Below the pieces are notes generated by a model. That model was not told the DNA's origin, searched no databases, and worked only from the letters and a program-made list of their open reading frames with translations. This document shows, one piece after another, positions 21,712 through 45,664 of a stretch of DNA of 64,000 bases (within the stretch, counting starts at the first letter, position 1; each line of letters starts with the position of its first letter). This DNA is from Myxococcota bacterium (GTDB lineage Bacteria; Myxococcota_A; UBA9042; PHBI01): positions 43,254-107,253 of the forward strand of contig JAXLYZ010000005.1 in the NCBI GenBank assembly GCA_046351155.1. The letters run 5' to 3'. The translations under genes were made by a program, and so were the position numbers.

Positions 21712-24700
21712 TCACAGCCTGACGGTCCACGCGCCGACCACCTCGCCGCTGGTCAGGCTCACGGCGCGGACGCGGCCGTCGCGGCTGAAGGCGGTGAGGA
21801 TCGGGCCGAGGCGGCAGTCGACGCGCTCGGCGCCCTCGAAGCGCAGGCTGGCCAGCGTCAGCGCCGGCTGCACGGTGCGCACGCGGCGCACCAGGATCGA
21901 CGGCGGGCTCGCGACGACCTCGGCCACGAGCTTGCCGTCGAGCGGGGTCGTCACCGTGAGCGGCGTCATGGGGTGGTCGGCGCTCCGGCCCTGGCGCTCG
22001 AAGCGGAAGCTCGGCAGCTCGAAGCGCCAGTGGAGGTCGGGCGCGACGGCGACGCTGAGGTGGTCGGGGTGGCGCTCGAGGCCGGTGATCGGGCCGCCGA
22101 GGTCGCTCACGTACCAGGTCGCCTCGGGCGGCGTGGAGTGGACGTCGAGCGCCGTCACGCTGGTCGCGTCGGCCAGGATGAGCTGCCGGCCATCGAAGGT
22201 GCGCGCCACGGCGCGCGCCGGCAGCGTCTGCCACGGGATGGCGACGCGCCGCTCGAGGTCGAGGCGGGCGATGCGCGCCAGCGCGCCGCGAAGGCCACCG
22301 CCGCCGCGGCCTGGCCGTGGTCGGCGACGACGAGCTGGTGGGCGGGCTCGGTCATGTGCGCCAGGCGGCGGCCGCGGCGATCGAGCAGCAGCACGCCCAG
22401 CTCGCCCAGCGCGACGAGCAGGCGCTGGCCCGGCAGCGCGGCGGCGTCGAGCACGGACAGCGGCCCGCGCTCGCTCGACGGCACGTCGATGACCAGCGGC
22501 GCGCGCGCCGAGCGAGCGCTGCGCCCGCGGCAGCGGCGGCAGGTCGGCGGCGAAGCTCTGGTCGAAGCGCGCGCGCTGGATCACGTCGCGCACGAGCTCG
22601 GGCCGGAGGTCGCCGCGCAGCACGTCGCCCAGCAGGACGCGCGCGGCCGCGTCGGCCAGGCGCTCGAGGCGCGGGTGCGGCGCGACCTGGCGCAGGCGCT
22701 CGGCCAGGATGCCGCGGGCGGTCGCGTCGGGGTCGTCGCGCAGCGCGGCCAGCGCGGCCAGCGCCTCGGGCTCGCGCGCCGGCGCCACCTCGAGCAGCTT
22801 CGGCAGGACGGCCGCCGCGCTCGGGCCGCCGAGCGCCAGCGCGCGCTCGATCCACGGCAGCGCCAGCGGGCGCTGCGCGGCGGGCAGGGGCCAGTAGATG
22901 TCGAGCGCGCGCACGACGTCGCCGGTCGCGGCGATGGACTCGGCCCAGGCGCTGCGCAGCGCGGCGGCGCGCGGGTCCTTCTCGCGCTCGAGGCGGCTCA
23001 GCGCGGCCGCGAAGGCGCCCTTCTGCACGGCGAAGGCGACGGCGCGATCGCGCTCGCCGGCGCGCATGAGGGCGATGACGACGAGGCTCGGCTCGAGCTG
23101 CTCGCCGCCGCCATGGTCGCCGCCAGCTCGAAGCGCTCGTGCTTCACGAGCAGCTCGTAGGCCTCGAGCGGCCGCTCGAGCAGCTCGGCGTGGACGAACG
23201 CAGCCTCGTCGACGCGACCCTCGGCCATCAGGCGATTGAGCATGACGCCGTAGCGATCGCGCAGGTGCTGGAACAGCTCGGGGACGACGCCGAGGCTGGC
23301 CTGGCCGCCGGCGCCGGGCACGCTGTAGGTCAGCGCCGTGCGCGGGCTCGGCGCGCGCGCGCGTCAGCGGCCCGGCGGCGCCCGGCGTGGTGTGGAGCGG
23401 GATGGCGTGGCGCAGCGCGGCGTCGAGGTCGCCGCGATCGAGCATGCCGAGCAGATCGCCGAGGTAGCGCGAGGCGGCGCGGCCGAAGAGCGAGCCGATA
23501 CCGGCGCGCACGGCGAGGCGCTCGAGCCAGCGCGAGATGCGCCCGAAGAGACCGACGCGCGCGGTCGGCGCGGGCGCGGCGAGGGTTCGACCGGACGCGA
23601 CGCCGGCCGGGTCGCGCGACGGCCTCCGAAGAGGCGGCGCAGCGCCTGCGCGAAGCGGCCGGGGCGGCGCGGCGGCGTCTTCAGCGCGCGGGCGACCTCG
23701 TCGCGCGCGGCGGCCAGCTCGAACGAGGGGCCGAGGTATTGTTGCGGCGTCAGCGGCCGCGCGACGGCGAGCGCGGGCAGGCGCGGCTCCGGCCCGAGCG
23801 GCGCGACCGATGCGACGGGGACGGCGGCGAGATCGATCCACGCCACCGGATCGAGCGCGCGCGCCTCGGCCAGCGGCGTCGCGGCAATGGCGCCGCCCAT
23901 GACCGCAACCAGCGCCGCCGGGCGCGGCTCCGGGCCGAGCACCTGCGCCAGCTCGGCGGCCTCGAGCGGCGCGGCCAGGAGGTCGGCGCCGCGGCGCACC
24001 AGCACGAGCCCGGGCGCGCCGGCGCACGACATGCGCCGCGGCGCGTCGAAGACCAGCAGCACGCCCCACGGCGTCCGGGCCACGCGGTCGCCCATGCCCC
24101 ACAGGCCGAGCGCGCGCCTCGGCGTCGACCTGGAGGACCAGACCGGCGGCGACGACCGAGCCGCGATGCAGCACCTGGCGCGGCGTGGCTCGGCTCACGC
24201 GCCGTCCTTCGCGCCTGTCGCGAGCGTGACCAGGTTCGCGCCGCTGACGATGTCGACGACGGCGATCTCGCCGCTCTCGGCGCGCCAGGCGAGGTGGCCG
24301 AAGGCGCGGCTGACGCACGCCGAGGCGACCGGGCGCGGCGCGCGCGCGATCTCCTTCACGCCGTCGGGCAGGAGGTGCGAGGCCTGCCGCCGCTCCGCGT
24401 CGAGCACGACCAGCCCGAGCACGGGCGACGACGGCGCGGCGCGGGCCAGGCCGATGACCTCGCAGCCTTCGGCCAGCGACACGCCCCGCGGCGCGCGCGC
24501 CGCGTCGAAGAGGGTCCACGCCCGCGCGCCGGTCTCGACCGCGACCGCGCCGGACGCGTGGCCGGCCGCGTCCGGCCCGAAGAACACGCGCGCGCCGGGC
24601 GCGAAGTCGAAGACCGCCAGCTCCATCGGCGCGGCCGGCGCCGCGTCCGGGTCCCCAGTCCTTGGGCAGGAGCAGCAGGCGGCCGCGGCCCGCGCCGAGC

Positions 24701-25956
24701 GCGGCCGAGGTGCCGACGCAGACGATGCCGTCGCGCCGGACGGCGAAGGCGTGGATGGTGTCGGAGTGGTTGCGCGTGCCGAGGGTCGGCGCGTGCGACC
24801 AGGCCACCAGGCGCCCGAGGCCGTCGAGCGTCATCCAGCGCAGGTGGAGGTAGCCGGCCTGGCCCACGCCCTCGACGCGAAAGGGCAGGCCATCGATGGC
24901 CGCCACGGCCTCGCGCGGCGGGTGGAGGTGGGGCGCGCCGCGGGACGACGCGAGGACGTGCGCCCCGCGCAGGGCGAAGGCCGCGAGCACGCGACCGATG
25001 GAGCCGACGGCGAAGAGCTCGCCCTCGGGCAGGTGCACGATCAGCGGCTTGCCCGCCTTGATGGCCGCCGAGTGCGGCACGTGGAAGGCGGTGAGCTTGT
25101 CGGCGCTGCGCACGAGCAGCCGGTGGCCGTCGCCGGAGAACATCGGCGCGCCGATCGCGGCATCGCGCGCGCGCTTGGCGTTGGGCTGCGGGGTCGTGCC
25201 CGGGTCGCCGAGGAGCGCCGCGCCGGACCAGTCCGACGGCAGGCTCAGCGCCACGCCGCGGCTCGCTGCCCCCTTGCGCGTGACCTCGACGCGCAGCTCG
25301 CGCTCGCCGCTCGCGACGCTGATGGCGTGCGCGCCGATGGCCGCGGCGCGGGTCGGCGTGTCGACGTCGCCGACCAGCCACAGCTCGCCGGCCCCGTGCT
25401 CCAGGGCGCGCGCCCGGGCGCGCGCGACGTCGGCGAGGACGAGCTGACGCAGGCTGCGCGCGGCGAGCAGCGCGCGGGCGTCGAGCCGCTCGTCGAGCGC
25501 GTCGCGCTCCGACTGGAGGACGCCCCAGGCGAAGCGCGCGCCGGCCTCGCGCGCGCGGCGACCGAGCGCGACCAGCAGCGCGACGTGGGCGAGGCGCATG
25601 ACGCCGAGCTGGCTCGGGCCGACGTCGAAGAGCACGGCCGTGGCGCGCCCACCGCTCGGCGCGCGGCGCTGCAGCTCGAGGAAGGTGTGCTCGCTGGCGG
25701 CGGCGCGGCGCAGGAACTCGTCGGGCAGCTCGTCGGCCAGGAGCCACTCGCTGGACAGCAGGCGCTGGTACGGCCCGCGCCGCGCCAGGCCGCCGAAGCC
25801 GTCCGGCTCACCGCTGCCCGGCGGTGGCGAGCCGCCGAGCGGACCGAGCGCGTGCAGCAGCCGGTCGAGCCACGGCGTGATGGCGCGGGCCAGCGCCTCG
25901 GGCACGAGCGCCAGGCTGTCGGCCCAGCGCGAGACCGGCTGACCGAGGCGCGTCAT
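21712..25956 (-). pseudogene. Large gene(s) downstream of the RavA-like ATPase, disrupted by multiple frameshifts (degenerate VWA-like N-terminus, beta-propeller-like and helical-repeat segments)
   Basis: Starts at ATG 25956, overlapping the upstream stop (ATGA). Protein-like sequence runs 25956 to about 24650 in one frame. It continues 24626-24195 in a second frame ending in a stop, then 24095 to about 23620 in a third frame. The rest is islands of protein-like sequence in the long-ORF frame (about 23130-22480 and 22270-21712), separated by Arg-rich out-of-frame stretches. Confidence 0.5.
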
Positions 25957-26363
25957 CGGGCCTGCCGCCAGGCTTCGAGCGCGGCCGCGCTCAGGCGACG
26001 CGCGTGCCCGAGCGGCACCAGCAGCGACGGCTCGGTCAGCAGCGCCACCGGGGTCGAGCCGGCGCGCGCGACCGCGGCGCGCGCGAGCAGCGTCGTCGCG
26101 AACGGCGGCGCCAGCGTCGTCGGCAGGTAGAGCTCGGGGCACAGCGGCTCGCGCCCGAGGTATTCGACGCCGTCGACCCAGGGCAGCGCGTCGCTCGGCC
26201 CCAGCAGCACGATCAGGTCGGCGCCGGCCACGCCCTCGAGGCGCGCGCGCCGCTCGTCGGCGAGCTCCAGCGCGGCCTGGACCAGCGCGCGCGCCACCGC
26301 GCCCCGACCGACGGCGGCCTCGGGTGCGAGCGGCTCGACGCGCGGCACGAGCGCCGGCGTCAT
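25953..26363 (-). CDS. Small hypothetical protein (137 aa), translationally coupled on both sides
   Basis: The ATG overlaps the RavA-like stop (ATGA at 26360-26363), and its own stop overlaps the next ATG (25953-25956). The sequence is protein-like. Confidence 0.45.
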   Translation of the reverse strand: MTPALVPRVEPLAPEAAVGRGAVARALVQAALELADERRARLEGVAGADLIVLLGPSDALPWVDGVEYLGREPLCPELYLPTTLAPPFATTLLARAAVARAGSTPVALLTEPSLLVPLGHARRLSAAALEAWRQAR

Positions 26364-27649
26364 GCGGAATCGCCAAGCACCTTGACGATGCGCGCGCGCA
26401 GCGTCGCGATGGGCGCGGGCCGGGCGTCGGCCGCGAAGCTGGCGTCGATCTCGCGCGCGATGCCCTCCACGCGCAGGCGCCAGGCGCGCAGCGCGTCGCG
26501 GCCGTCGGCGCCGGCCGCGCTCGGGACCTCGGCGAGCAGCGCTTCGCCGAGGCGCGCGATGCGCTCGGCGCGCGCGTGCGGGCCCTGCGAGGCGTCGAGC
26601 GCGGCGGCGGGCAGGGCCGGGTTGTGCGCGTGGGCGAAGACCTCGCGCAGCGCGTCGCGCGCCAGCGCCTGGCCCTCGGCGCTCGGCACCACATAGAGGA
26701 GCGGCCACAGGTCGGCCGGCGTCGGATCGGCTCGGCCGGCCAGCACGGCGGCGGCGGCCGTGAGCGCCTGGGCCTTCACGATGCGCCGATCGGTGAGCGC
26801 GATGCCGGCGTCGCGCAGCGTGCGCACGACCTCGGCCAGACGCGGCCGGAGCGCGCTGGTGTCGGCGACGCGCGCGGCCTCGACCAGCACGTCGATGTCG
26901 GCGACGCTGGCCGGCGGCGGCCCGAGCGCGTCGCGCTGCAGGCTGGCGCCGGCCGCGAGCAGGTCCTCGAGGGCCGGGTCGGGGATGGGCTGCACGAAGA
27001 CGTGGAGCAGGAAGCGATCGGCGAAGGCGGCCAGCGTCGGATCCTCGGGCAGCGCGTTCGACGCGCCGACGCACACGCGCAGCGGGCAGGCGATGTCGCT
27101 GTGGCCGCGGCGGAAGCGGCGCTCGTTGAGGACGCCGAGGAGCGAGTTGAGGATGGCCGTCGAGCCGAGGAACACCTCGTCGAGGAAGGCCAGGTCGGCT
27201 TCGGGCAGCATGCCGTGGGTGTCGGTCTCGACGCGCCCGGCGCGGAGCTTCTGCAGATCGACCGCGCCGAAGATCTCGCTCGGCTCGGTGAAGCGGCCGA
27301 CCAGGTACTCGAAGACGCGGCCGTCGATGCCGCGCGCCACGCGCCGCACCGCCTCGCTCTTGGCGGTCCCGGGCGGGCCGATGACGAGCAGGTGCTCGCG
27401 CGCGACGGCGGCCAGGACCACGAGCTCCACCACCAGCTCGCGCTCGACCAGGCCGCGCGAGGCGCGCTCGATGGCGAGCCGCAGCCGTCGCGACGCATCG
27501 GCCAGGCCCGCGCGCGCGAGACGATTCTCGGGGTCATGGCGGGCGGTCGTGGACATTGGCGCAAGATAGCTGCTATCCGCACAGAGCGCATCCCACGTGT
27601 CGAGGTAGCGAGCCGTCGCGCCACCACCCGGTTTGCTCATGCGCGACAC
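26360..27649 (-). CDS. MoxR-family AAA+ ATPase, RavA-like
   Basis: Walker A LVIGPPGTAKSE. There are blocks closely resembling E. coli RavA: FEYLVGRFTEPSEIFGA against RavA FEYLMTRFSTPEEVFGP, and LPEADLAFLDEVFLGSTAILNSLLGVLNERRF against RavA [32 protein letters not shown]. The start is GTG 27649 or ATG 27640. Confidence 0.8.
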   Translation of the reverse strand: MSRMSKPGGGATARYLDTWDALCADSSYLAPMSTTARHDPENRLARAGLADASRRLRLAIERASRGLVERELVVELVVLAAVAREHLLVIGPPGTAKSEAVRRVARGIDGRVFEYLVGRFTEPSEIFGAVDLQKLRAGRVETDTHGMLPEADLAFLDEVFLGSTAILNSLLGVLNERRFRRGHSDIACPLRVCVGASNALPEDPTLAAFADRFLLHVFVQPIPDPALEDLLAAGASLQRDALGPPPASVADIDVLVEAARVADTSALRPRLAEVVRTLRDAGIALTDRRIVKAQALTAAAAVLAGRADPTPADLWPLLYVVPSAEGQALARDALREVFAHAHNPALPAAALDASQGPHARAERIARLGEALLAEVPSAAGADGRDALRAWRLRVEGIAREIDASFAADARPAPIATLRARIVKVLGDSA

Positions 27650-27699: not shown

Positions 27700-29856
27700 A
27701 TGGTGCTGAAGTCTGCGAAGAAGCTGATCGACAACGTCAGCGGCAAGAAAGACAAGTCGAAGGGCGCTCCGACCACACCGCCGCCGCGGCCGACCACGCC
27801 GGCGCCGACGACGAACAAGCAGGCACCGCCGCGGCCGACCACGCCCGCGCCGACCGACAAGCAGGCGCCGCCGCGACCGACCACGCCGGCGCCCGGTACG
27901 CCGACCGTCGCCCAGGCGCCGAAGGCCTTCGTGAAGGGCGCCAAGCCCGGCACGCCGCAGCCCGAGGGCTCGCAGCTGGGCGCCCAGCGCGCCTGGAAGA
28001 AGACGACGCCGAAGGCGAACGACAAGGCGCCGACCAGCCCCAAGAAGATCGGCGAGAACCGCAAGATCACGAAGGCCCTCGAGAAGCAGGAGTCGAAGAC
28101 GCCGCTGCCGACCGAGGTCAAGGAGAAGGTCGAGGAGGCCAAGGAGGTCGAGAAGGTCGCGCCCGTGGTCGAGAAGGCCAAGCACGAGACCCCGCCGGCC
28201 AACAAGTACAGCGCCTCGGCCTACACGACGACGGTCGCCGACGACGAGGCGAAGAGCCCGTACACGACCACCGTCGACGACGGCGAGAGCCCGCTGCGCC
28301 AGAGCCAGGGCAAGGTCGGCGCCTACAGCTCCGAGCAGAAAGACGCCGAGGACGACATGTCCTCCCAGGACGACGTCTCGTCCGACGCGCTCGAGGTCCA
28401 GGGGCTCGACCCCAACCGCTACGCGGCCGTGCAGCACAGCGACGTGGCCACGTTCTCGTCGTCCGACGACGGCTTCGTGAGCGAAGAGGAGACGAGCTCG
28501 AGCGGCGAGGTCGGCGCCCCGATGCAGATCCCCAAGGCCCAGCTGCTGATGCGCATCAAGGCGGCCAAGGTCGCCAAGCTGCGCGCCGACCGGGCCAAGG
28601 AGAAGGAGGCCGAGAAGGCCAAGCAGGAGGACGAGGCCAAGCAGAAGAGCAACGAGACGCCGAAGGAGGAGGTCAAGGAGGAGGTGAAGGAGGATGCGCC
28701 GCCCACCAACTACGGCTCGGCCACCAACTACGCCTCGGCCAGCAGCTACACCATGACCGGCTCGGACTCCATGGCCCACTACGGCAACCGGTACAGCAGC
28801 ATATCGAGCGACGACGAGCCCGACCTGTCGTCGACCGGCTTCCGCACCGACGACATGAGCGCGCACACCGCCGAGATCGACATGGCCTCCGACCTCGAGG
28901 ACGCCGCGGCGGCCATCCCCAACGTCCAGGAGCGCCACACCGCCTCGAAGAACCCCGAGGTGAAGGCCATGCAGCAGAAGCTGCGCGACGGCCGGCGCAA
29001 CCTGAAGGACGCCCCCGAGGTCGTGAACGACTCGGTGACCGGGCAGCACATCGCCACCAACCAGATCGAGCGCGAGCGCATGAGCTCGAACGAGCGCAAG
29101 TCCGAGGGCTGGGCGCTGCTCGGCATGCGCACCGAGCACCGCGAGCAGGACCTCGGCAAGAAGGGCGGCCGCTGGGACGTCAAGTACGCGCTCTCCGAGT
29201 TCGCCGAGATCGAGGCCGGCGTCGAGCAGCTGCTGGGCGACAAGCTCCGCACCGGGCGCGAGGAGATGCTGTGCGAGGTCTACGGCGGTCGCCTCGTCGA
29301 CGTGGCGGGCCGCGGCGTCGACACCTCGAGCGCCGGCGTCAGCGGACAGGCGCAGCACGATCGCACCGACAAGCTGCGCGAGAAGATCGAGAAGGCCAAG
29401 CAGGCCGGCTTCGGCGACAAGGTCGCCAAGCTCGAGAAGAAGCTCGACACCGCCGTCAAGGACCCGCGCAAGGACAAGAGCATCTCGGGCCGCTTCATCT
29501 ACGTGATGAACGCCAGCGGGCAGTTCTTCGCCTGCAAGCCCGAGCTCTACAAGGTCCACCACTCGGCCATGCTGGCGGGCGGCGCGGTCGCGTGCGCCGG
29601 CGAGATGCTGGTGTCGGGCGGCACCATCCAGGCCATCAACAACTCGAGCGGCCACTACCGGCCGGGGCCGGCCTTCCTGTGGCAGGCCGTGAAGCAGCTC
29701 GAGATGAGCGGCGCGTCGATGGGCTTCCAGGTCGAGTGCGCGGCCGTGACGCGCAAGTTCAAGACCGGCACCGACTTCCTGAGCGCCATGGATCCGACGA
29801 CCGACGCCAAGCTCTTCGACGGCGTCTACGCCGTGAAGAAGCTGAACGCCCGATGA
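27700..29856 (+). CDS. K/E/P/T-rich intrinsically disordered protein with an unrecognised C-terminal globular domain (about 130 aa)
   Basis: 718 aa with no signal peptide. It has three 11-aa PT repeats (APPRPTTPAPT), charged K/E blocks (KAAKVAKLRADRAKEKEAEKAKQEDEAKQK) and a Y/S/N-rich segment. The C-terminal segment is GRFIYVMNASGQFFACKPELYKVHHSAMLAGGAVACAGEMLVSGGTIQAINNSSGHYRPGPAFLW. Codon usage is native-like (AAG/GAG). The stop overlaps the next ATG (ATGA). Confidence 0.65.
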   Translation: MVLKSAKKLIDNVSGKKDKSKGAPTTPPPRPTTPAPTTNKQAPPRPTTPAPTDKQAPPRPTTPAPGTPTVAQAPKAFVKGAKPGTPQPEGSQLGAQRAWKKTTPKANDKAPTSPKKIGENRKITKALEKQESKTPLPTEVKEKVEEAKEVEKVAPVVEKAKHETPPANKYSASAYTTTVADDEAKSPYTTTVDDGESPLRQSQGKVGAYSSEQKDAEDDMSSQDDVSSDALEVQGLDPNRYAAVQHSDVATFSSSDDGFVSEEETSSSGEVGAPMQIPKAQLLMRIKAAKVAKLRADRAKEKEAEKAKQEDEAKQKSNETPKEEVKEEVKEDAPPTNYGSATNYASASSYTMTGSDSMAHYGNRYSSISSDDEPDLSSTGFRTDDMSAHTAEIDMASDLEDAAAAIPNVQERHTASKNPEVKAMQQKLRDGRRNLKDAPEVVNDSVTGQHIATNQIERERMSSNERKSEGWALLGMRTEHREQDLGKKGGRWDVKYALSEFAEIEAGVEQLLGDKLRTGREEMLCEVYGGRLVDVAGRGVDTSSAGVSGQAQHDRTDKLREKIEKAKQAGFGDKVAKLEKKLDTAVKDPRKDKSISGRFIYVMNASGQFFACKPELYKVHHSAMLAGGAVACAGEMLVSGGTIQAINNSSGHYRPGPAFLWQAVKQLEMSGASMGFQVECAAVTRKFKTGTDFLSAMDPTTDAKLFDGVYAVKKLNAR
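27775..27900. repeat. Coding 33-bp tandem repeat, 3 copies (encoding PPRPTTPAPT[TD]KQA)
   Basis: ccgccgcggccgaccacgccggcgccgac... is repeated three times with minor variation. Confidence 0.55.
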
Positions 29857-30371
29857 GCGACCTCGCAGCCGCGGTCGGCCGCGCCGCCGATCTCGTGGGA
29901 CGCATCGTCGACGACCCCACCGAGCACGGCCTGGCCGCGGCGGTGGCGGCCGATCCGGGGTCGCTCGACGCGCTCTTCGCGGTGCTGCGCGACCGCTTCG
30001 TCGAGCGCGGCGAGGGCTTCGGCGACCTCGAGGGCGACGACACCTTCTGGCGCATCATCGCCATCGCGCTGACGACGTGGGCGCCGGCGCTGCGCGAGCG
30101 CTTCGCCGCCGAGGTGCTGTTCAAGGCCGCGGCGCCCGACGCGTATCGCTGGATCGCGCCGCTGGCGCGCGCGCTCTATCGCGCCGACGCGGCCGAGCGG
30201 CTGGTGCTGGCGGCCGTCGAGCGCGGCGACGCGGCGACGCGCGTGAACGCGTCGCACCTGGCGTACTACCTCTTCGACGGCTCGCCCGAGTACGCCCTGT
30301 CGGACATCGGGGCGCGTCGCCTCGCCGATGCGGACCCGCTCCGCTCGCCGCGGGCGGCGGACGGTGACTGA
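29853..30371 (+). CDS. Hypothetical helical protein (172 aa), translationally coupled
   Basis: The ATG overlaps the upstream stop. The protein is protein-like with no known motif. Its stop TGA overlaps the GTG 30364 start candidate of the kinase. Confidence 0.55.
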   Translation: MSDLAAAVGRAADLVGRIVDDPTEHGLAAAVAADPGSLDALFAVLRDRFVERGEGFGDLEGDDTFWRIIAIALTTWAPALRERFAAEVLFKAAAPDAYRWIAPLARALYRADAAERLVLAAVERGDAATRVNASHLAYYLFDGSPEYALSDIGARRLADADPLRSPRAADGD

Positions 30372-33342
30372 CCTGCCCTACGAGCTGGGCCCGCTCATCG
30401 GGCACGGCGGACAGGCGGATGTGCACGCGGCGACCGAGCCCATGACGGGCGCGCCGCTGGCCGTGAAGGTGCAGCACCTCTCGGCCAATCGCCACGCCGG
30501 GCCGAGCCTGCTGCGCGAGTACCAGCTGCTGCGCGAGATCGATCATCCGGCCTTCGCCGTGGCGCACGCCGCCGGTCGGCTGGCCGACGGTCGCGTGTGG
30601 CTCGCCATGCAGCGGCTCGACGGCGTGGCCGCGGCCGACTGGGCGCGCGGCCTCGGCCCGCCCGCCACGCGCCACCGCACGCGGCGCGTGCTCGAGCGCA
30701 TGGTGGCCATCGCCGACGCGGTGGCCTACCTGCACCGGCAGGGCGTGGTCCACGGCGACCTCAAGCCCGGCAACATCCTCGTCGCGGCCGACGGCTCGCC
30801 GCGCATCCTCGATCTCGGCGGCGTCCACTTCGACCCGGGCCTGGCCCCGGGCGCGCGCGGCATGTTCCGCACGGTGCCGTACGCCTCGCCCGAGCAGCTC
30901 GACAAGGGCGTCCTGGCGGCGAGCGCCGACGTGTTCTCGCTGGCCGCGACGTGCGTGCGGCTCCTGAGCGACGAGCATCCCTTCGGGGCCGGTGCCAAGG
31001 ACGCGGTGCGCGCGCGCCAGGGCGCGGCGAGCGCGGCGAGCGCGGCGCTCGATCGCTCGGGGCCGCTGTCCGAGGCTACGCGCGCGCTGCTCCTGCGCTG
31101 CTTGAGCGTCGAGCCCGCCGCGCGGCCGTGCGACGCCGGTGCGCTGCGCGACGCGCTGCGCGCGCGCCTGCCGACGCCGGTGGCCTGGCCGACGGCCGAG
31201 CCGCGCGCGGCCAGCCAGGCCGAGGCGCTGGGTACGCTGCGGGCGCTGCTGGTCGACGCGCCCGGCCTCGCGCCGGTGGCGCTCATCGGGCGCCCCGGTG
31301 GCGCCGCGGCGCTGCTCGCGCAGCTCGCGCTGGATGCGGCCGCGCTCGGTGCGAGCGTGCTCGAGGTCGGCGGCGACGCGCCCGAGCGCCTGCGCGACGC
31401 GCTCGACGCGCTGCTCGAGGGCGCGACGCCGACCAGCGAGGCGCCGCAGCTGGTGGTGCTCATGCGCCGCGCGGAGCGCTTCCCGGCGAGCGACCGCCGC
31501 GCGCTCGAGGTGCGCCTGGCCACGCTGGTCGAGCGCGGCTGGCGCGTGGCCCTGGTCGCGGCCACCCACGAGGCCGGGATGGCCCACGTCGCGCGCTGGC
31601 TGCATCGGCCGACGGCGATCCGACTCGCGCCCGAGGCCTCGGTCGAGGTCGACGAGCCCGAGGCGGAGGCGGAGACGAACGAGCCGGCGTGGCCGGGCGA
31701 CGCGCAGCTGGCGGCGATCCTCGAGGCCACCGCGCTGGTCGCGGCCAGCCCCGACGGCCGCGCCGACCTGGCCACGCTGGCGTCCGGGCTCGCGCTGACG
31801 CCGGCCGCGGTGCGGCGCGGGCTCGATCGACTGGCGCGCCACGGCTGGGTGCGCGGCGACGCCGACGGCGGCTGGGCGTTGGCCGAGCCCGAGCTGCGGC
31901 GCACGTTGCACCGACACGGCGAGGGCCGCGCGGCGCTGGCCGAGCGCCTCGCCAACGAGTGGGAGGTCGAGCCGCACGCGCTCGGCCGCGCCAACTGCCT
32001 GCTCGTCGCCGGGCGCGTGGTGGCCGCGGCCGACAACGCCGCGCGCTGGGCACGGGCCGCGCTGCGCCACGACGACGTCGCGCGCGTGGCCGACGGCCTC
32101 GACCGGCTCGGCGCGCTCGACGACGCGCTCGAGCCCGGCGCGGCGCGCACCTCGTGGCTGCTGTTGCGGGCGCGCACGGCCGCGCTCGCCGACTGCACCG
32201 ACCCGCGCGTCGCCGGATGGCTCGCCGAGCTCGGCGCCCGCGCCGAGACGCGCGAGGCCCAGCGCGCCGACGAGCTGGCCGCGGTCGTCGCCGGCTGGCG
32301 CGGCGAGCCGCCCGAGCGCGCGCTGGTGCTGGCCCAGCGCGAGCTCGACCAGGGCCGCTACGAGCGCGCGCTGGCGCTGGCGCGCGGCGAGGTGAGCCAG
32401 GCCCACGAGGCCGGCGCGCTCGACGTCGCGGCGCGCGCGGCGCTCGTCGCCGGACAGGCGCTGGCGGCGCTCGGCCGCCTCGAGGAGGCGGCGCGCGCGC
32501 TGGCCGACGCGGCCGACGGCTGGCCTGATGCGCCCGGCGCGGGCGCCGTCGCGTACGAGCGCGCCGAGGTGCTGGCGGCGCTCGGGCGCTGGGGCGAGGC
32601 CGGGCGCGTCCTGGCGCGCGCGCACGCCCGAGCGACGACGCCGTGGGATCGCGCCGCGACCGCCATCGGCGCGGCCGCGCGGGCCACCGATCGCGGCCAT
32701 GCGCGCGGCGCGCTGGCGCTGCTCGAGGCGCTCGCCGCCGAGCCGTTCGTCGCGCGCCACCCGCGCCTCCAGCTCGGCTGGCACGTCGAGCGCCTGCGCG
32801 CCATCGCGCTGCACGGCAGCGACGACGCGCTCGCCGCGGCGCGCGCCGCCGAGCCGGTCGTGGCCGAGCTCATGCGCGCCGGTCGCCGCGCACACGCGGC
32901 GCGCCTCGGCGCCTGGCAGGCGGCCGCGGCCTGGACGGCCGGCGACCATCAGACGCCGAGCACCGAGGCGAGCGGCCTCGCGACGTGGGCCGCCAGCATC
33001 CTGGGCGAGCTCGGCCATCGCCTGTGGTGGGCCGAGGCCGCCACCGTCGACGTGTGGCTCGCGCGTAGCCAGGGCGGCGACGCGCGCATGCCGCCGGCGC
33101 TCGTCGCGCAGCTGACGGAGGCCGAGGCGTGGCCGCTGGCGATGCGCGCGGCGCTGGCCGAGGGCGACGTGCAGCGGGCGTGGGGCGCGGCCGAGATGTT
33201 CCTGGCGCACGTCGACAGCGCCGGCGCGATCGCGCTCGAGCTGATGCCGTGGGCGGTGCGGGCGCGCGCGCTCACGGCCGAGGCGGCACACCACGCGAGC
33301 CTGGCGAGCACGTCGAGCACGTCGAGCACGGAGGACGGCTGA
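30328..33342 (+). CDS. Ser/Thr protein kinase fused to STAND-like NTPase (degenerate P-loop), winged helix and TPR-like repeats
   Basis: Hanks kinase motifs GHGGQADVH, AVK, HGDLKPGNIL, DLGG and VPYASPEQ. They are followed by ALIGRPGGAAALLAQ (a P-loop lacking Lys), LVVLM (Walker B-like) and a long Ala/Leu-rich helical repeat region. Start is ATG 30328 or, more likely, GTG 30364. Confidence 0.85.
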   Translation: MRTRSARRGRRTVTDLPYELGPLIGHGGQADVHAATEPMTGAPLAVKVQHLSANRHAGPSLLREYQLLREIDHPAFAVAHAAGRLADGRVWLAMQRLDGVAAADWARGLGPPATRHRTRRVLERMVAIADAVAYLHRQGVVHGDLKPGNILVAADGSPRILDLGGVHFDPGLAPGARGMFRTVPYASPEQLDKGVLAASADVFSLAATCVRLLSDEHPFGAGAKDAVRARQGAASAASAALDRSGPLSEATRALLLRCLSVEPAARPCDAGALRDALRARLPTPVAWPTAEPRAASQAEALGTLRALLVDAPGLAPVALIGRPGGAAALLAQLALDAAALGASVLEVGGDAPERLRDALDALLEGATPTSEAPQLVVLMRRAERFPASDRRALEVRLATLVERGWRVALVAATHEAGMAHVARWLHRPTAIRLAPEASVEVDEPEAEAETNEPAWPGDAQLAAILEATALVAASPDGRADLATLASGLALTPAAVRRGLDRLARHGWVRGDADGGWALAEPELRRTLHRHGEGRAALAERLANEWEVEPHALGRANCLLVAGRVVAAADNAARWARAALRHDDVARVADGLDRLGALDDALEPGAARTSWLLLRARTAALADCTDPRVAGWLAELGARAETREAQRADELAAVVAGWRGEPPERALVLAQRELDQGRYERALALARGEVSQAHEAGALDVAARAALVAGQALAALGRLEEAARALADAADGWPDAPGAGAVAYERAEVLAALGRWGEAGRVLARAHARATTPWDRAATAIGAAARATDRGHARGALALLEALAAEPFVARHPRLQLGWHVERLRAIALHGSDDALAAARAAEPVVAELMRAGRRAHAARLGAWQAAAAWTAGDHQTPSTEASGLATWAASILGELGHRLWWAEAATVDVWLARSQGGDARMPPALVAQLTEAEAWPLAMRAALAEGDVQRAWGAAEMFLAHVDSAGAIALELMPWAVRARALTAEAAHHASLASTSSTSSTEDG

Positions 33343-35516
33343 TGGCGAACCGCGCGCTGGAGGATCTGGCCGAGCGACACCTCGACGCCGAGCTCGGCTG
33401 GCGGCGCGTGGCGCTCGACGTCCACAGCGCCCGCGTGATGCGCGCGCGCAGCGTCGGCCTCGGCCGCGGCCAGCTCGAGCCCGACGAGGTCGAGGCGCTG
33501 GTCGACGCCGCGCGCCGCCGCGACGAGCTGGTGGCCGACCTGGCCGCCGGCGACGAGAAGCCGCCGCTGGTGCTGCTCGCCGAGCGGCTCGGCCTGAACG
33601 ACGACGATCGGCTCCTGTGGGCCGCGGCCATCGGCGCCGAGGTCGACCCGGCCATCGCGCGCCGCTTCGCGCAGCTCGACGATCACGGCGCGCGCTGGCC
33701 GACGCTGGCCACGCTCATCGAGACGGTCATCGAGCCGCGGCGCCGCCTGCAGGTGCGCGGCCGCCTCGAGCCGTGGTCGCCGCTCGTGCGCTACGAGCTC
33801 CTCGTGGTCGACCCGCGCTTCGGCCTCGACGCCAGCGGGCCGCTGCGGCCGTCGACGCGGCTCGTGCGCCTGGCGCGCGGCGAGATGGGGCTCGACCCGT
33901 CGATGGAGTCGTACGGCGCGCTGTGGACCGCGCCCGATCCGCGGCCGATGGCGCTGTCGGACAAGGCGCGCGAGAAGTTCGAGTGGTTCGCCAAGGGCTT
34001 TCGCACGCTGCGCGCGGGCGGCTCGCAGCCGCTGTGGATCCTGAAGGGCCCGGTCGGCGTCGGGCGCACGCGCTGGGTGCGCGAGGCGGCGGCGGCGTGC
34101 GGCTGGTCGACGCTGGCCATCGACCTCGCCGGCGCGGCGGCCTGGAACACGCGCGACGACGGCAGCCACGCGGCGGTGCTGGCCGAGGCCATGCGCGAGG
34201 CGCGGCTCCAGGACGCGGTGCTGGTGCTGCGCGGCTGGGACACGCTGGTCGACGGCTCGCTGACCTCGAGCGGCGGCGGCGGCGAGGACGAGTCGTCGAT
34301 CGGCGAGAAGTCGGCCGAGCTGGTGCGGCGCATGTCGGTAGGCCTCGAGCAGAGCCTGCGCGAGCACCCGCTGCCGGTGACGCTGGTGGTCGGCCCGAGC
34401 TTCGACGAGCTGCCCGACGTGCAGCGCGGGCTCTCGCTCATCGAGGTGCCGATGCCCGACGCCGCCGCCTCGAACGCGCTGTGGGCGCGCGCGGCCGGGC
34501 CCGGCACGCTGGCCGACGGCGTTACGCCGCAGCAGCTGACCGAGGCCTTCCGGCTGACGCCGGGCGAGATCGAGGCGGTGGCGACGGCGTGCGAGCGCGT
34601 GGCGCGCGTGGCCGAGAAGGGCGTCACCGTCGACGAGGTGCGCGCCGAGGTGAAGACGTTCCTGCGCCATCGGCTGCGCCAGATCGCCACGCTGGTCGAG
34701 CACCGCTACGACTGGCCGCAGCTCATCTGCCCGAGCTCGGTGGTCATCAACCTCCGGAGCCTGGTCGACCGCTACCGCATGCGCCACAAGGTCATGGTCG
34801 ACTGGAAGATGGGCGAGCGCTTCGGCGAGGCGCGCGGCATCAGCGTCCTCTTCGAGGGCCCGCCCGGCACCGGCAAGACCATGGCCGCCAACATCATCGC
34901 GCGCGAGCTCGGCCTCGACCTCTTCCAGGTCGACCTCTCGAAGGTGATGAGCAAGTACATCGGCGAGACCGAGAAGCACCTCGGCATGCTCTTCGACGAG
35001 GCCGAGCGCGCCCAGGCGCTCATCCTCTTCGACGAGGCCGACAGCCTCTTCGCCAAGCGCACCGAGGTGAAGGACTCGCACGACCGCCACGCCAACCTGA
35101 AGGTCAACTTCCTTTTGCAACGCATCGAGCGCTTCAGCGGCCTGGCCATCCTGACGACCAACCTGGCCGAGAGCATCGACGAGGCGTTCGGCCGGCGCGT
35201 CACGGTGCGCGTGCACTTCCCGAAGCCCGAGCTCGACATGCGCGTCCTGCTCTGGAAGAGCATGCTCGACGGCCTGCCGCAGGCGGTCGACGACGCCGAC
35301 ATCGCCGACCTGGCCAAGGAGTTCGAGCTCACCGGCGGCCTCATCCGCAACGCCGTCCTGCGCGCGGCCTTCTTCGCCGCCTCGGCCGATCGGCCCATCG
35401 ACTACCGCCTGCTCGAGATCGCCACGCGCATGGAGCAGAAGAACCAGTCGATGCTCTTGCGCGGCGACCCGATGCAGGACCTGATGCAGACCATGCAGCA
35501 GGACGAGTCGGGATGA
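33342..35516 (+). CDS. Tandem AAA+ ATPase (N-terminal degenerate module, C-terminal classic-clade AAA)
   Basis: The C-terminal module has Walker A GPPGTGKT, Walker B ILFDEADSL and an SRH-like region (TTNLAESIDEAFGRR). The N-terminal module has GPVGVGRT with Arg replacing Lys. The ATG overlaps the kinase stop (TGATG). Confidence 0.85.
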   Translation: MANRALEDLAERHLDAELGWRRVALDVHSARVMRARSVGLGRGQLEPDEVEALVDAARRRDELVADLAAGDEKPPLVLLAERLGLNDDDRLLWAAAIGAEVDPAIARRFAQLDDHGARWPTLATLIETVIEPRRRLQVRGRLEPWSPLVRYELLVVDPRFGLDASGPLRPSTRLVRLARGEMGLDPSMESYGALWTAPDPRPMALSDKAREKFEWFAKGFRTLRAGGSQPLWILKGPVGVGRTRWVREAAAACGWSTLAIDLAGAAAWNTRDDGSHAAVLAEAMREARLQDAVLVLRGWDTLVDGSLTSSGGGGEDESSIGEKSAELVRRMSVGLEQSLREHPLPVTLVVGPSFDELPDVQRGLSLIEVPMPDAAASNALWARAAGPGTLADGVTPQQLTEAFRLTPGEIEAVATACERVARVAEKGVTVDEVRAEVKTFLRHRLRQIATLVEHRYDWPQLICPSSVVINLRSLVDRYRMRHKVMVDWKMGERFGEARGISVLFEGPPGTGKTMAANIIARELGLDLFQVDLSKVMSKYIGETEKHLGMLFDEAERAQALILFDEADSLFAKRTEVKDSHDRHANLKVNFLLQRIERFSGLAILTTNLAESIDEAFGRRVTVRVHFPKPELDMRVLLWKSMLDGLPQAVDDADIADLAKEFELTGGLIRNAVLRAAFFAASADRPIDYRLLEIATRMEQKNQSMLLRGDPMQDLMQTMQQDESG

Positions 35517-35567: not shown

Positions 35568-36692
35568 TCACATTCCCGGCAGCCGCTCGAGCCGCAGCGT
35601 GGTCGTCAGCGTCCGGTCGACGAGGTTCCCGACCAGCGCGCTGCCGTTCGGGTACATGGTGCCGTGCAGCCGGTGCGACGCGCCGTCGGGGCCCTCCAGC
35701 GCCACGTCGAGCGCGAACGACTGGGCCGCGAAGGTGAAGAGCGCGACCGGATCGCCGATGCGGTAGCCGCAGCCGCCGCAGTCGCCGGGCGTGAAGGTGA
35801 AGCCGAAGTCGGGCGGAAAATAGCCGGCGGCGGCGTCCAGCGGAATCTGCCAATCTCCGCCGTCCAGCGTCCCGCGGTAGTGGCCCTGCAGGTTGCCGGG
35901 CGACGTCACCAGGCAGAAGCCCTCGACCGGGAACAGCCCGGGCGTCGCGCCGCGCCCCCACACCACGTAGCGCAGGCCGGCGATGAGCGGCGAGCAGTCC
36001 CACGGCGCGCCCGCGTCGCAGGTATCGACCCGGCACCCGAGGTCGGGGACGGCCGGCGTCGCCACCAGCCGGAGCGCGCCCGACGCCGTGATCGGGCCGA
36101 GCGCCACGTCCTCGCGGCACGTGCACGCCTCGGCCTCGGAGCACGGCGCCGTCGCGCTCTCGATCGGCGTCGGCACGCCGCCGGCCGTGCCGTAGCCATC
36201 CCACTCCGGCGCGAGGAGGAAGCGGCCGCTCTGGAACTGGCCGCGGCCGCACATGTACTGGCACAGCGGCTGGCTCTCGTAGACGCAGGCGTGCTCGACG
36301 CAGCGCTCGACGGTGCAGTCGTTGCCGTCGTCGCAGCCGAGGCTGAGGCCGTCCTCGCACTGCTGGCAGCCGTTGGCGAAGGTGTGCCGGCAGCGCTGGA
36401 AGCCGCAGCCGTCGATGACGCAGGCGTCGTCGGTGCAGGCGTTGTGGTCGTCGCAGTGGAGGTCGGTGCGGCACGCGTTGGCGGCGTCCTCCGGCACGAA
36501 GACGCAGCGGTCGGCGACCTGGTCGCAGCGGTCCTCGGTGCACGGATCGCCGTCGTCGCACGGCAGCCCGCCGGTCTCGGGGTCGCGCTCGAGGCAGAAC
36601 GGCGTCGCGAGGTCGTCGCCGCCGCAGCCGACCAGCGCGGCCAGCCCGGCGAGGGCGCCGCGCGCGCAGAAGACCACCAGGGCGCGGCGCAT
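35568..36692 (-). CDS. Lipoprotein with myxobacterial-type Cys-rich repeats
   Basis: Lipobox LVGCGG. Repeated DxxxCTxDxC modules (DGDPCTEDRCD, DHNACTDDACV, DGNDCTVERCV). Confidence 0.65.
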   Translation of the reverse strand: MRRALVVFCARGALAGLAALVGCGGDDLATPFCLERDPETGGLPCDDGDPCTEDRCDQVADRCVFVPEDAANACRTDLHCDDHNACTDDACVIDGCGFQRCRHTFANGCQQCEDGLSLGCDDGNDCTVERCVEHACVYESQPLCQYMCGRGQFQSGRFLLAPEWDGYGTAGGVPTPIESATAPCSEAEACTCREDVALGPITASGALRLVATPAVPDLGCRVDTCDAGAPWDCSPLIAGLRYVVWGRGATPGLFPVEGFCLVTSPGNLQGHYRGTLDGGDWQIPLDAAAGYFPPDFGFTFTPGDCGGCGYRIGDPVALFTFAAQSFALDVALEGPDGASHRLHGTMYPNGSALVGNLVDRTLTTTLRLERLPGM

Positions 36693-36701
36693 GCCGGCGC
36701 C

Positions 36702-44228: not shown

Positions 44229-44234
44229 AGTCGC

Positions 44235-44756
44235 TTGGGCGTCACCCCCGAGGATCGCGGCGAGGTCCCCGAGCTCGATCTCGAGGACCTCTACCGCCGC
44301 TTCGCGCCGCAGGTGCTGCGGCGCGGGCGCTACTTCCTCGGCCCGTCGGAGGCCGAGGAGCTGGTCCACGAGGTGTTCGTGCGCGCGCTCGAGCAGAAGG
44401 ACCGCTTCCGTGGCGAGAGCTCGCCCGCGACGTGGCTCTTCCGCATCGCCACCCACCTGTGTCTCAACCGCCTGCGCGACCGGAAGCGCCAGGCGGCGCT
44501 GCTGGTCCGCCACGGCCCGACCGTGTGGGCGCAGAGCGATCCCGGGAGCTCTCCCGAAGCGCGCGCGTTCCTGAGCTCACTGTGGCGTACCCTCGACGAG
44601 GAGCTCGCTATGATCGGTACCCTCTATTACGTCGACGGCCTCACCACCGCCGACATCGGCGAGATGCTCGAGGTCTCGGATCGCACCATCGCCAATCGCC
44701 TGAAGACCCTCACCGAGCTGGCCCGCCGCCACGCCGGCGTGGAGGACGGGGCGTGA
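44235..44756 (+). CDS. ECF (sigma-70 family) RNA polymerase sigma factor
   Basis: Region 2 (LVHEVFVRALEQKDRFRGESSPATWLFRIATHLCLNRLRDRKR) and region 4 HTH (LYYVDGLTTADIGEMLEVSDRTIANRL). The track start is TTG 44235. Confidence 0.8.
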   Translation: MGVTPEDRGEVPELDLEDLYRRFAPQVLRRGRYFLGPSEAEELVHEVFVRALEQKDRFRGESSPATWLFRIATHLCLNRLRDRKRQAALLVRHGPTVWAQSDPGSSPEARAFLSSLWRTLDEELAMIGTLYYVDGLTTADIGEMLEVSDRTIANRLKTLTELARRHAGVEDGA

Positions 44757-45664
44757 GCACGCGGCCCCCGCAGGCGTCCCAGGCGTCGGACGCCGCATCG
44801 GACGCCCCGCCCCGCGGCCTCGACCGCGGCGGCCACCTGTCCGAGCTGGCGTTCGACCGCCTGCGCTCCGACCGGCCCGGCAGCCACGACGCCTTCCGCG
44901 CCGGCGCGCTCGCGCATCTGGCCGAGTGCGCGCGCTGCCAGGCGGCGCAGGCCGCGCTGGCCGCCGCCGACGCCGAGGTCGGCCTGCGCCCGCCGGCCGC
45001 GCCGATGCGCTCGACGCCGACGGCGACGCCGACGCCGATCGCCCAGGCCCGCGCCGCGCGCGTGCGCCGCGCCCTGACCCTGGGAGCGCCGCTGGCGGCC
45101 GCCGCGCTCGCGCTGGTCATCGCCCTGCCGAGCGGCCAGGCGCCGGTCGGCCCCGGCCCCGGCGTCCCGCCCGACGCCGACCTCGACGCCGGCGACCACA
45201 TCATCCTGAAGAGCGGCGCCCTCGACTTCGAGGTCTACATCCACGACGGCACGGCCAGCCGCCTGGTGCAGAGCGGCGCCGAGGTCCACCCGGGCGACCG
45301 CGCCAGCTTCCGCGTCAACCTGCGCGCGCCCGGCTACCTCCTGGTCGTCGGCTCCGACGAGGCCGGCCACACCTACCTGTGCTGGCCGCAGGACGGCGTC
45401 GTCGCGGCCGACAGCGCCGAGGCCGTGGCCATCGGCCCGACCGCCGCGCCCGAGCAGCTCGAGGCCGCCATGCGCTTCGACGACGTGCTCGGCGACGAGC
45501 ACCTGGTGGCGGTCTTCTGCCCCGGCCGCTTCGCCTACCCCGACGTCGCCACGCGTGAGCTGGTCGGTCGCGATGAGGCATTGCTCGCCCGTTTCCGGCA
45601 GACTCACGCCGACTGCACCATCCGGGCGGTCGTGCTCCACAAGGTGTCGGGGGCCAAGCCATGA
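44753..45664 (+). CDS. Anti-sigma factor (zinc-binding ZAS-type, single TM)
   Basis: GTG overlaps the sigma stop (GTGA). Motif HLAECARCQAAQ (HxxxCxxC). TM segment LTLGAPLAAAALALVIAL, then a periplasmic domain. Confidence 0.65.
   Translation: MSTRPPQASQASDAASDAPPRGLDRGGHLSELAFDRLRSDRPGSHDAFRAGALAHLAECARCQAAQAALAAADAEVGLRPPAAPMRSTPTATPTPIAQARAARVRRALTLGAPLAAAALALVIALPSGQAPVGPGPGVPPDADLDAGDHIILKSGALDFEVYIHDGTASRLVQSGAEVHPGDRASFRVNLRAPGYLLVVGSDEAGHTYLCWPQDGVVAADSAEAVAIGPTAAPEQLEAAMRFDDVLGDEHLVAVFCPGRFAYPDVATRELVGRDEALLARFRQTHADCTIRAVVLHKVSGAKP

Follow-up and report, generated by a model that had tools for sequence, protein, structure and literature searches.

A Tox-EDA39C domain preceded by a long, predicted disordered region and encoded in a conserved four-gene operon of Myxococcota

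The window analyzed here is a 64,000-nucleotide stretch of a contig from a Myxococcota bacterium (JAXLYZ010000005.1), and the gene under study encodes a protein of 718 amino acids (aa) on its forward strand. Judged by sequence, the C-terminal domain of this protein is Tox-EDA39C, a known family that has been described by computation only. What is new is the setting of the domain, in which a disordered region takes the place of a trafficking domain and a conserved four-gene operon surrounds the toxin-like gene. The gene probably codes for a Tox-EDA39C toxin/effector whose architecture is specific to Myxococcota and which a co-translated partner would neutralize. The features of the gene and its operon are as follows.

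27700..29856, forward strand: gene for the 718-aa protein, with a polybasic N terminus, a disordered region, and an extended Tox-EDA39C domain
27700..27765, forward strand: polybasic N-terminal segment MVLKSAKKLIDNVSGKKDKSKG, aa 1-22, kept in the Myxococcota subfamily described below
27700..29061, forward strand: aa 1-454, predicted to be intrinsically disordered; contains blocks rich in K/E, acidic tracts rich in Ser, and degenerate repeats with Tyr
27779..27893, forward strand: Pro/Thr-rich tandem repeat, three PPRPTTPAP copies with a 42-bp period
29062..29853, forward strand: folded region, aa 455-718, from structure prediction and subfamily conservation
29344..29460, forward strand: helical-hairpin insert, aa 549-587, found in the long subfamily only and missing in short toxins and plant proteins
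29488..29778, forward strand: Tox-EDA39C conserved core, aa 597-693, from profile search, alignment, and the family definition (PMC3482391)
29560-29562 (H621) and 29647-29658 (S650-G651-H652-Y653), forward strand: predicted active-site residues, from conservation
29853..30371, forward strand: gene for the 172-aa partner, in ATGA stop/start overlap with the 718-aa gene
30328..33342, forward strand: gene for a Ser/Thr protein kinase of 1004 aa with a TPR-containing C-terminal region (Pkinase E 6.6e-28; start tentative)
33342..35516, forward strand: gene for an AAA+ ATPase with a Cdc48/VCP-like AAA domain and a winged-helix domain (AAA E 1.1e-30; WHD; VCP-like PDB matches)

Tox-EDA39C was named from computation by Zhang, de Souza, Anantharaman, Iyer, and Aravind in 2012 (Biol Direct 7:18; PMC3482391), and was defined as 'alpha + beta; H, Sx[HS]Y', its two histidines being strongly conserved. 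Its members were predicted to be RNase A-like, metal-independent RNases. They were reported from polymorphic toxins (with type II, V, VI, and VII secretion systems [T2SS, T5SS, T6SS, and T7SS], RHS, HINT, and Imm-SuFu), from endosymbiont effectors, and from eukaryotes, where they are typified by plant EDA39; transfer from bacteria to eukaryotes was proposed (PMC3482391). All of the defining features that we examined are present in the domain studied here, and its identity was accepted on this basis. The predicted structures mix strands and helices, a conserved histidine (H621) lies in the N-terminal half, and S650-G651-H652-Y653 provides the Sx[HS]Y signature and the second histidine in the C-terminal half. 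The domain is homologous to the C-terminal region of plant EDA39, as seen through an IQM-type plant protein, and its relatives are toxin modules of polymorphic toxin systems.

Searches of Pfam, NCBIfam, and PADLOC gave no family match for the 718-aa protein, and Tox-EDA39C is not represented in the copies of Pfam and NCBIfam searched. A word-indexed search retrieved only two relatives of the protein, and PDB sequences (phmmer and a profile search) returned nothing meaningful for the domain. In an exhaustive profile search with the core, 6562 representative proteins passed E<=1e-3, and 2025 also passed the stricter cut-off of E<=1e-10. The core is ~100 aa long, with the consensus ..IFVMD..G..YA....G.FHHSSFLAG.PVAAAGE..V..G.L..I.N.SGHY.P....Q....L...GVD. 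Over 148 aligned domains, conservation reaches 100% at G634 and G641, 99% at H621 and H652, 98% at G651, 97% at Y653, 95% at S650, and 91% at P655. All of these residues are kept in the 718-aa protein, which differs from its relatives among the most conserved positions only at 623. A first-pass annotation of the sequence had taken the C-terminal domain to be novel, matching none of the motifs it considered, and had named a remote-homology search of the domain alone as one check, with a match to a characterised family as an outcome that would refute it; the homology searches led to the family described in PMC3482391, and by that standard the domain is not novel. The HH...NN...H spacing, which it had called loosely HNH-like, also gave way, as the asparagine positions vary (Ser/Thr/Asn at 647, Asn in 74% at 648) and the conserved set is H621, S650, G651, H652, Y653, G634, and G641. 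An HNH nuclease was ruled out, with no HNH family match and no nuclease among the fold matches. The label 'eukaryote-like' is apt insofar as the domain is common to plant EDA39/IQM1, but most members are bacterial toxins and the proposed transfer runs from bacteria to eukaryotes.

The plant comparison was made with P0059, an IQM-type sequence annotated as 'Calmodulin-binding family protein' of Dovyalis caffra, and not with the Arabidopsis EDA39 sequence. EDA39 is At4g33050 (PMC4969306), and At4g33050 is IQM1 (bioRxiv 10.1101/2023.03.09.531943). The profile matches P0059 at E 6.6e-25, hhalign aligns it with the bacterial alignment over 124 columns at 99.6% probability (E 4.5e-24), and BLASTP of the domain from the window gives E 2e-12. 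Plant IQM/EDA39 proteins and the 718-aa protein have in common a core of ~125 aa (V.YL..ER..Y.V...G.L....G..L.T...IFV......Y.......HHSSFLAGG..AAG........L.......HY.P). The plant proteins carry an IQ calmodulin-binding motif and SKHY/SRHY, whereas the 718-aa protein has SGHY and neither an IQ motif nor any other Pfam match at E up to 1, the sequence upstream of its domain being low-complexity. In turn, the helical hairpin, the disordered N-terminal region, and the adjacent partner gene are absent from the plant proteins. In a study of rice IQM proteins, the core region appears as unannotated motifs, one of which was considered similar to trichosanthin (PMC8469326). That the conserved IQM core is a bacterial toxin domain goes unmentioned in that paper and in the abstracts on IQM1 covered here, and this link between bacterial toxins and plant proteins is one reason why the domain matters.

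AlphaFold2 (AF2) models of aa 455-718, built from a 68-sequence alignment, reached a predicted local distance difference test score (pLDDT) of 93.8 and a predicted template modeling score (pTM) of 0.89; for the short homologue P0180, the pLDDT was 89.6. The compact C-terminal region had earlier been put at about 130 aa, but the folded unit in the model is ~264 aa (455-718), with the conserved core at aa 597-693. It comprises an N-terminal extension with an NE..S.GWALL motif, a beta-hairpin ending in DT, the helical-hairpin insert, the core, and a C-terminal helical tail. Relative to a typical Tox-EDA39C domain, it is enlarged to 264 aa by the N-terminal extension and the helical hairpin.

No confident fold match was found among solved structures, and none to any RNase. 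The one neighbor, weakly similar in fold, is the human 14-kDa phosphohistidine phosphatase PHPT1 (PDB 2nmm; Pfam PF05005, Ocnus/janus), a metal-independent enzyme with a catalytic histidine and a similar order of strands and helices. Homology to PHPT1 found no support: hhalign probabilities were <1% both for PHPT1 alone and for a 98-sequence PHPT1 profile, none of 64 family members matched PF05005 even at E up to 10, and the profile search of PDB sequences was empty. The relationship stays one of fold resemblance and not of membership. PHPT1 has the secondary-structure order b-b-a-b-b-a-b, as does the model of the short homologue. By our own reading, the invariant histidine would presumably fall at the PHPT1 catalytic His53, and S-G-H-Y-x-P at its S94-M-A-Y-G-P phosphate loop. 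The basic substrate-binding residues of PHPT1 have no obvious conserved counterparts in the Tox-EDA39C family. The resemblance is a fold-level lead only, compatible with metal-independent, histidine-dependent phosphoryl transfer, and it does not decide between RNase and phosphatase.

Upstream of the folded domain, aa 1-454 have a mean hydropathy of 0.385, below the charge-hydropathy boundary of 0.418, and 63% of the residues are disorder-promoting; aa 455-718 fall on the folded side of the boundary. The earlier picture of a long disordered N-terminal part followed by a compact C-terminal domain is borne out by charge-hydropathy for the former and by AF2 for the latter. Its finer details also stood. 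The three 11-aa Pro/Thr repeats are copies of P(P/A)PRPTTPAP(T/G) at aa 27, 43, and 57 (DNA unit 42 bp, 2.6 copies, 89% match), and both the K/E-rich blocks and the Y/S/N-rich stretch are present, with 10 tyrosines in degenerate NY/AY/SY contexts within Tyr/Ser/Asn-rich stretches. No signal peptide or transmembrane segment was found, as the first-pass annotation had stated for the signal peptide: the 19-aa hydropathy maximum of 1.32 lies inside the folded domain, and the maximum at the N terminus is 0.23. Pfam and NCBIfam searches of aa 1-454 found no domain, and the secretion/trafficking domains of classical polymorphic toxins are absent.

The whole architecture recurs in a Myxococcota subfamily (L003, L005/P0009, L016, P0005, P0006, and P0008, from Kofleriaceae and 'Deltaproteobacteria' metagenome-assembled genomes [MAGs] and metagenomes). 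Its members begin with the consensus M.hKS.GKKh..GKK.K, continue with several hundred low-complexity residues, and end with the extended Tox-EDA39C module. Overall similarity of the disordered regions is low, but they have in common the short linear motifs hG.(H/Q/N)R and (G/T/A)W.(G/K)(G/K) and Tyr-containing degenerate repeats (NY.., GYD.., and PY..); LGAQRAWKK occurs once in the 718-aa protein. The conserved polybasic segment may have a role in trafficking or membrane binding. N-myristoylation (MGxxxS) of homologues starting with MGLGS or MGLDS was ruled out, as the serine is at position 5 and not 6.

The stop codon of the 718-aa gene overlaps the start of the 172-aa gene (ATGA at 29853), in keeping with the coupling to downstream genes in the same orientation that had been noted earlier. 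Homologues of this partner occupy the same position in L001, L003, L005, L006, L008, and L013-L016, and the family occurs in at least 10 loci, with overlapping start and stop codons. Another homologue lies downstream of a core-only Tox-EDA39C match (L033, 8161-8355), so the partner family extends beyond the long disordered subfamily. No Pfam family was found for the partner; its profile matches in the PDB are weak and are to ARM and other helical-repeat proteins, suggesting that it is probably an alpha-helical-repeat protein. Imm-SuFu (PF05076) was ruled out as its identity, with 0 of 6 partner homologues matching SUFU at E up to 10. The toxin gene and its coupled partner most likely form a toxin/immunity-like pair.

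Start/stop overlaps continue along the operon. The partner and kinase genes overlap by 44 nt (30328-30371, with the kinase start tentative), and the likely start of the AAA+ ATPase, the ATG at 33342, overlaps the kinase stop (TGATG, 33340-33344). The order toxin-partner-kinase is present in seven loci (the window, L003, L005, L013, L014, L015, and L016), and the AAA+ ATPase belongs to the module at three of them: the window, L003 (51% identity), and L016 (45% identity). L006, L008, and L001 have the toxin and partner with no kinase or AAA+ gene seen, over several kb of flank in L006 and L008 and, in L001, on a short contig that breaks off within the partner gene. The operon differs from described Tox-EDA39C systems in its partner, which is not Imm-SuFu, and in including a Ser/Thr kinase and an AAA+ ATPase. 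Phosphorylation by the downstream kinase, which the first-pass annotation had suggested checking, gains some footing from the conservation of the kinase link in seven related loci. No known defense system was recognized: the PADLOC matches are to generic kinase and AAA domains only.

Relatives of the domain occur in a range of toxin contexts. Two-partner secretion (TPS) and filamentous-haemagglutinin repeats precede the domain in P0015, P0053, and P0013, and P0010 is a giant protein sorted by the type IX secretion system (T9SS). WXG100-like modules occur in P0150 and L012, a papain-fold Gln deamidase toxin stands alongside the domain in P0038, and in P0199 the domain directly follows an Rhs DPxGL boundary. 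The eCIS_core/DUF4157 module of extracellular contractile injection systems (eCIS) is paired with the domain in P0027 and L004. In L004, eCIS_core is followed by the same disordered linker and extended Tox-EDA39C module as in the 718-aa protein. In most of 95 domain-bearing open reading frames (ORFs), the domain ends no more than ~60 aa from the C terminus, and a closely spaced ORF follows on the same strand at 62 of the 78 loci with enough flank. These downstream ORFs fall into at least five recurrent families (11, 8, 8, 7, and 6 members). A C-terminal domain with a close downstream ORF is the pattern expected, by analogy, of toxin-immunity pairs. In the actinobacterial-type locus L012 (5000-7058), the 152-aa Tox-EDA39C protein is encoded after two WXG100 genes, and a 198-aa gene begins 3 nt behind it; in L009 (6001-7055), also actinobacterial-type, a 148-aa toxin is paired with a 199-aa partner. 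The L012 and L009 partners share homology (E 7e-8); neither is related to the partner in the window.

The Tox-EDA39C relatives are C-terminal in Rhs, filamentous-haemagglutinin, T7SS, and other toxins and are followed by a small immunity-like gene, whereas the 718-aa protein has no recognized trafficking module and instead has a polybasic N terminus and ~450 aa of disorder. It resembles eCIS DUF4157/eCIS_core cargo toxins through L004 and P0027, but it lacks eCIS_core, and no eCIS structural genes are in the window. In classical toxin-immunity pairs (CdiA-CT/CdiI and Rhs-CT/RhsI), a C-terminal toxin domain is likewise followed by a small cognate gene, and the partner families vary with the toxin subclade. 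Unlike these pairs, the system in the window has no delivery domain, includes a conserved accessory kinase and AAA+ ATPase, and has a partner that is conserved together with the toxin and not hypervariable.

Four giant secreted relatives of T9SS-sorted or TPS/haemagglutinin type, P0010 (4667 aa), P0015 (4028 aa), P0017 (4421 aa), and P0044 (7287 aa), contain 4 to 6 internal Tox-EDA39C cores at a regular spacing of ~300 to 1100 aa. Toxin domains normally occur once and at the C terminus, which makes these internal copies unusual. In P0004 (1176 aa), the whole extended module of ~330 aa is duplicated, with eight SNYTD.PKQ repeats between the copies.

The 718-aa ORF is a real, native gene. Its ATG lies 5 nt downstream of a ribosome-binding site (GAGGGGG), and this start is supported by the L003 homologue, which opens with the same MVLKS. 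GC content at codon positions 1, 2, and 3 is 0.62, 0.46, and 0.976 in a genome of roughly 75% GC, from which we conclude that codon use is native, as the first-pass annotation had also held in arguing against a recent foreign insertion. Across the gene, GC falls locally to 0.67-0.72 and AT skew rises to +0.49 (strong A>T); this reflects the K/E/S/T-rich amino-acid content and not foreign DNA. Long antisense and out-of-frame ORFs at the gene are high-GC artifacts, since homologues exist for the forward frame only, and the earlier view that the protein is unlikely to be a mistranslated antisense product agrees with this. In NCBI, an identical protein is recorded as MFO0744489.1, 'MAG: hypothetical protein [Myxococcota bacterium]'.

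The mechanism that we infer from these features would make the C-terminal domain the active part of a toxin, with an active site built from H621 of the HHS motif and H652 of the S-G-H-Y-x-P loop. Its chemistry would be metal-independent, histidine-dependent phosphoryl transfer, for which the published prediction is RNase A-like RNA cleavage (PMC3482391). Chemistry of this class also agrees with the weak fold resemblance to PHPT1. The helical 172-aa protein, whose translation is coupled to that of the toxin, would serve as a dedicated neutralizing, immunity-like partner. The polybasic N terminus and ~450-aa disordered region appear to occupy the place of the Rhs, CdiA, WXG100, and eCIS-core (DUF4157) modules; as replacements for the trafficking modules of the relatives, they may serve delivery and/or regulation. 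The analogy with the eCIS_core-fused L004 suggests export, with the disordered region as a delivery part. The co-operonic Ser/Thr kinase and AAA+ ATPase would act as accessory regulators.

Several observations weigh against a neutralized toxin of this kind. Position 623, occupied by Ser in 89% and Thr in 9% of relatives, is Ala in the 718-aa protein, which could weaken activity. The protein has no recognized secretion/trafficking domain, signal peptide, or lipobox, and no secretion machinery (eCIS, T6SS, or other) was found in the window. In deltaproteobacteria, the immunity family reported for Tox-EDA39C is Imm-SuFu (PMC3482391), to which the partner does not belong, and a conserved kinase and AAA+ ATPase are atypical of interbacterial toxin-immunity pairs. 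Finally, no experimental study of a Tox-EDA39C family member was found in the literature searched, so that both 'toxin' and 'RNase' are predictions.

Some of these points would be accommodated if nothing were secreted and the four-gene operon acted in the producer cell, for example in phage defense/abortive infection or in developmental cell death. Phosphorylation of the Ser/Thr/Tyr-rich disordered region by the kinase, removal of the inhibitor by the AAA+ ATPase, or both would then unleash the enzyme. Regulation by these two proteins would account for the operon, with its overlapping start and stop codons, its toxin-partner-kinase order in seven loci, and its AAA+ ATPase in three. The absence of a secretion signal in the protein and of machinery in the window fits as well, as do the abundance of Ser, Thr, and Tyr in the disordered region, an adjoining ATPase of the MoxR-vWA conflict-system type, and the resemblance of the kinase and AAA domains to defense-system models at the domain level. 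However, the PADLOC matches are to generic domains and not to a known system, L004 has the same disordered region and domain behind eCIS_core, which points to export, L006, L008, and L001 carry the toxin and partner with no kinase or AAA+ gene seen, and phosphorylation of the disordered region is a prediction. We regard this purely intracellular explanation, which still falls within the toxin/partner reading, as rather unlikely. A bolder version, in which an undescribed kinase-gated intracellular effector system is switched on by phosphorylation and/or AAA+ removal of the inhibitor, activating a PHPT1-like two-histidine phospho-hydrolase or RNase whose core would also work in plant IQM proteins under calmodulin control, strikes us as improbable.

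The enzyme might also be a phosphohistidine/phosphoramidate phosphatase-like protein and not an RNase; its substrates in the target would be phospho-His intermediates or some phosphorylated small molecule. The strand and helix order of PHPT1 and our placement of the invariant histidine and S-G-H-Y-x-P on its His53 and phosphate loop favor this, but the hhalign, PF05005, and PDB profile results described above do not, nor does the lack of obvious counterparts to the basic substrate-binding residues; we consider a phosphatase doubtful. The domain could instead be a non-catalytic binding or regulatory module, the usual view of plant IQM proteins, and the protein as a whole a disordered scaffold for kinase signaling. 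Such a role is consistent with Ala at 623 where 98% of relatives have Ser or Thr, with the conserved short motifs in the long disordered region, and with the binding and regulatory roles that alone are reported in PMC8469326 and the abstracts on plant IQM proteins. Yet both near-invariant histidines, the SGHY loop, and the invariant glycines are intact, the closest homologue has Thr at 623, and activities that need neutralizing typically come with a dedicated co-translated partner; we hold this role to be quite improbable. Least credible, and close to excluded in our judgment, is the original idea that the protein is eukaryote-like and disordered and that its C-terminal domain is truly novel and loosely HNH-like. 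The empty Pfam, NCBIfam, and PADLOC searches and the lack of a PDB sequence or confident fold match agree with it, but the domain was named in 2012 (PMC3482391), has thousands of relatives, and varies at the asparagine of the supposed H-N-H.

Tox-EDA39C is poorly served for a family of more than 6500 representative sequences, with neither a solved structure nor a model in Pfam or NCBIfam. The two-histidine site and the high-confidence model bear on function in the bacterial toxins as well as in plant IQM proteins. If the link to the kinase and AAA+ ATPase is functional, it would represent a new way of controlling a toxin domain, and a kinase-gated system, if real, would provide the first biochemical activity for the plant IQM family.

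Other genes surround the operon. Divergent from the 718-aa gene, across a gap of ~50 bp, is a bpMoxR AAA ATPase of MoxR-vWA-beta-propeller ternary systems (26360-27649, reverse strand; PF20030, E 5e-83), and behind it is an ORF of 1660 aa (21712-26694, reverse strand) that has no Pfam match and is probably a product of mixed reading frames. Convergent with the AAA+ gene is a 377-aa protein (35568-36701, reverse strand) that weakly matches the Dictyostelium CTDC repeat (PF00526, E 6e-6) without reaching the gathering score. Farther downstream, a caspase-domain protein is encoded at 45577-47253 on the forward strand (PF00656, E 5e-8), with a gene for an extracytoplasmic function (ECF) sigma factor upstream of it at 44229-44756.

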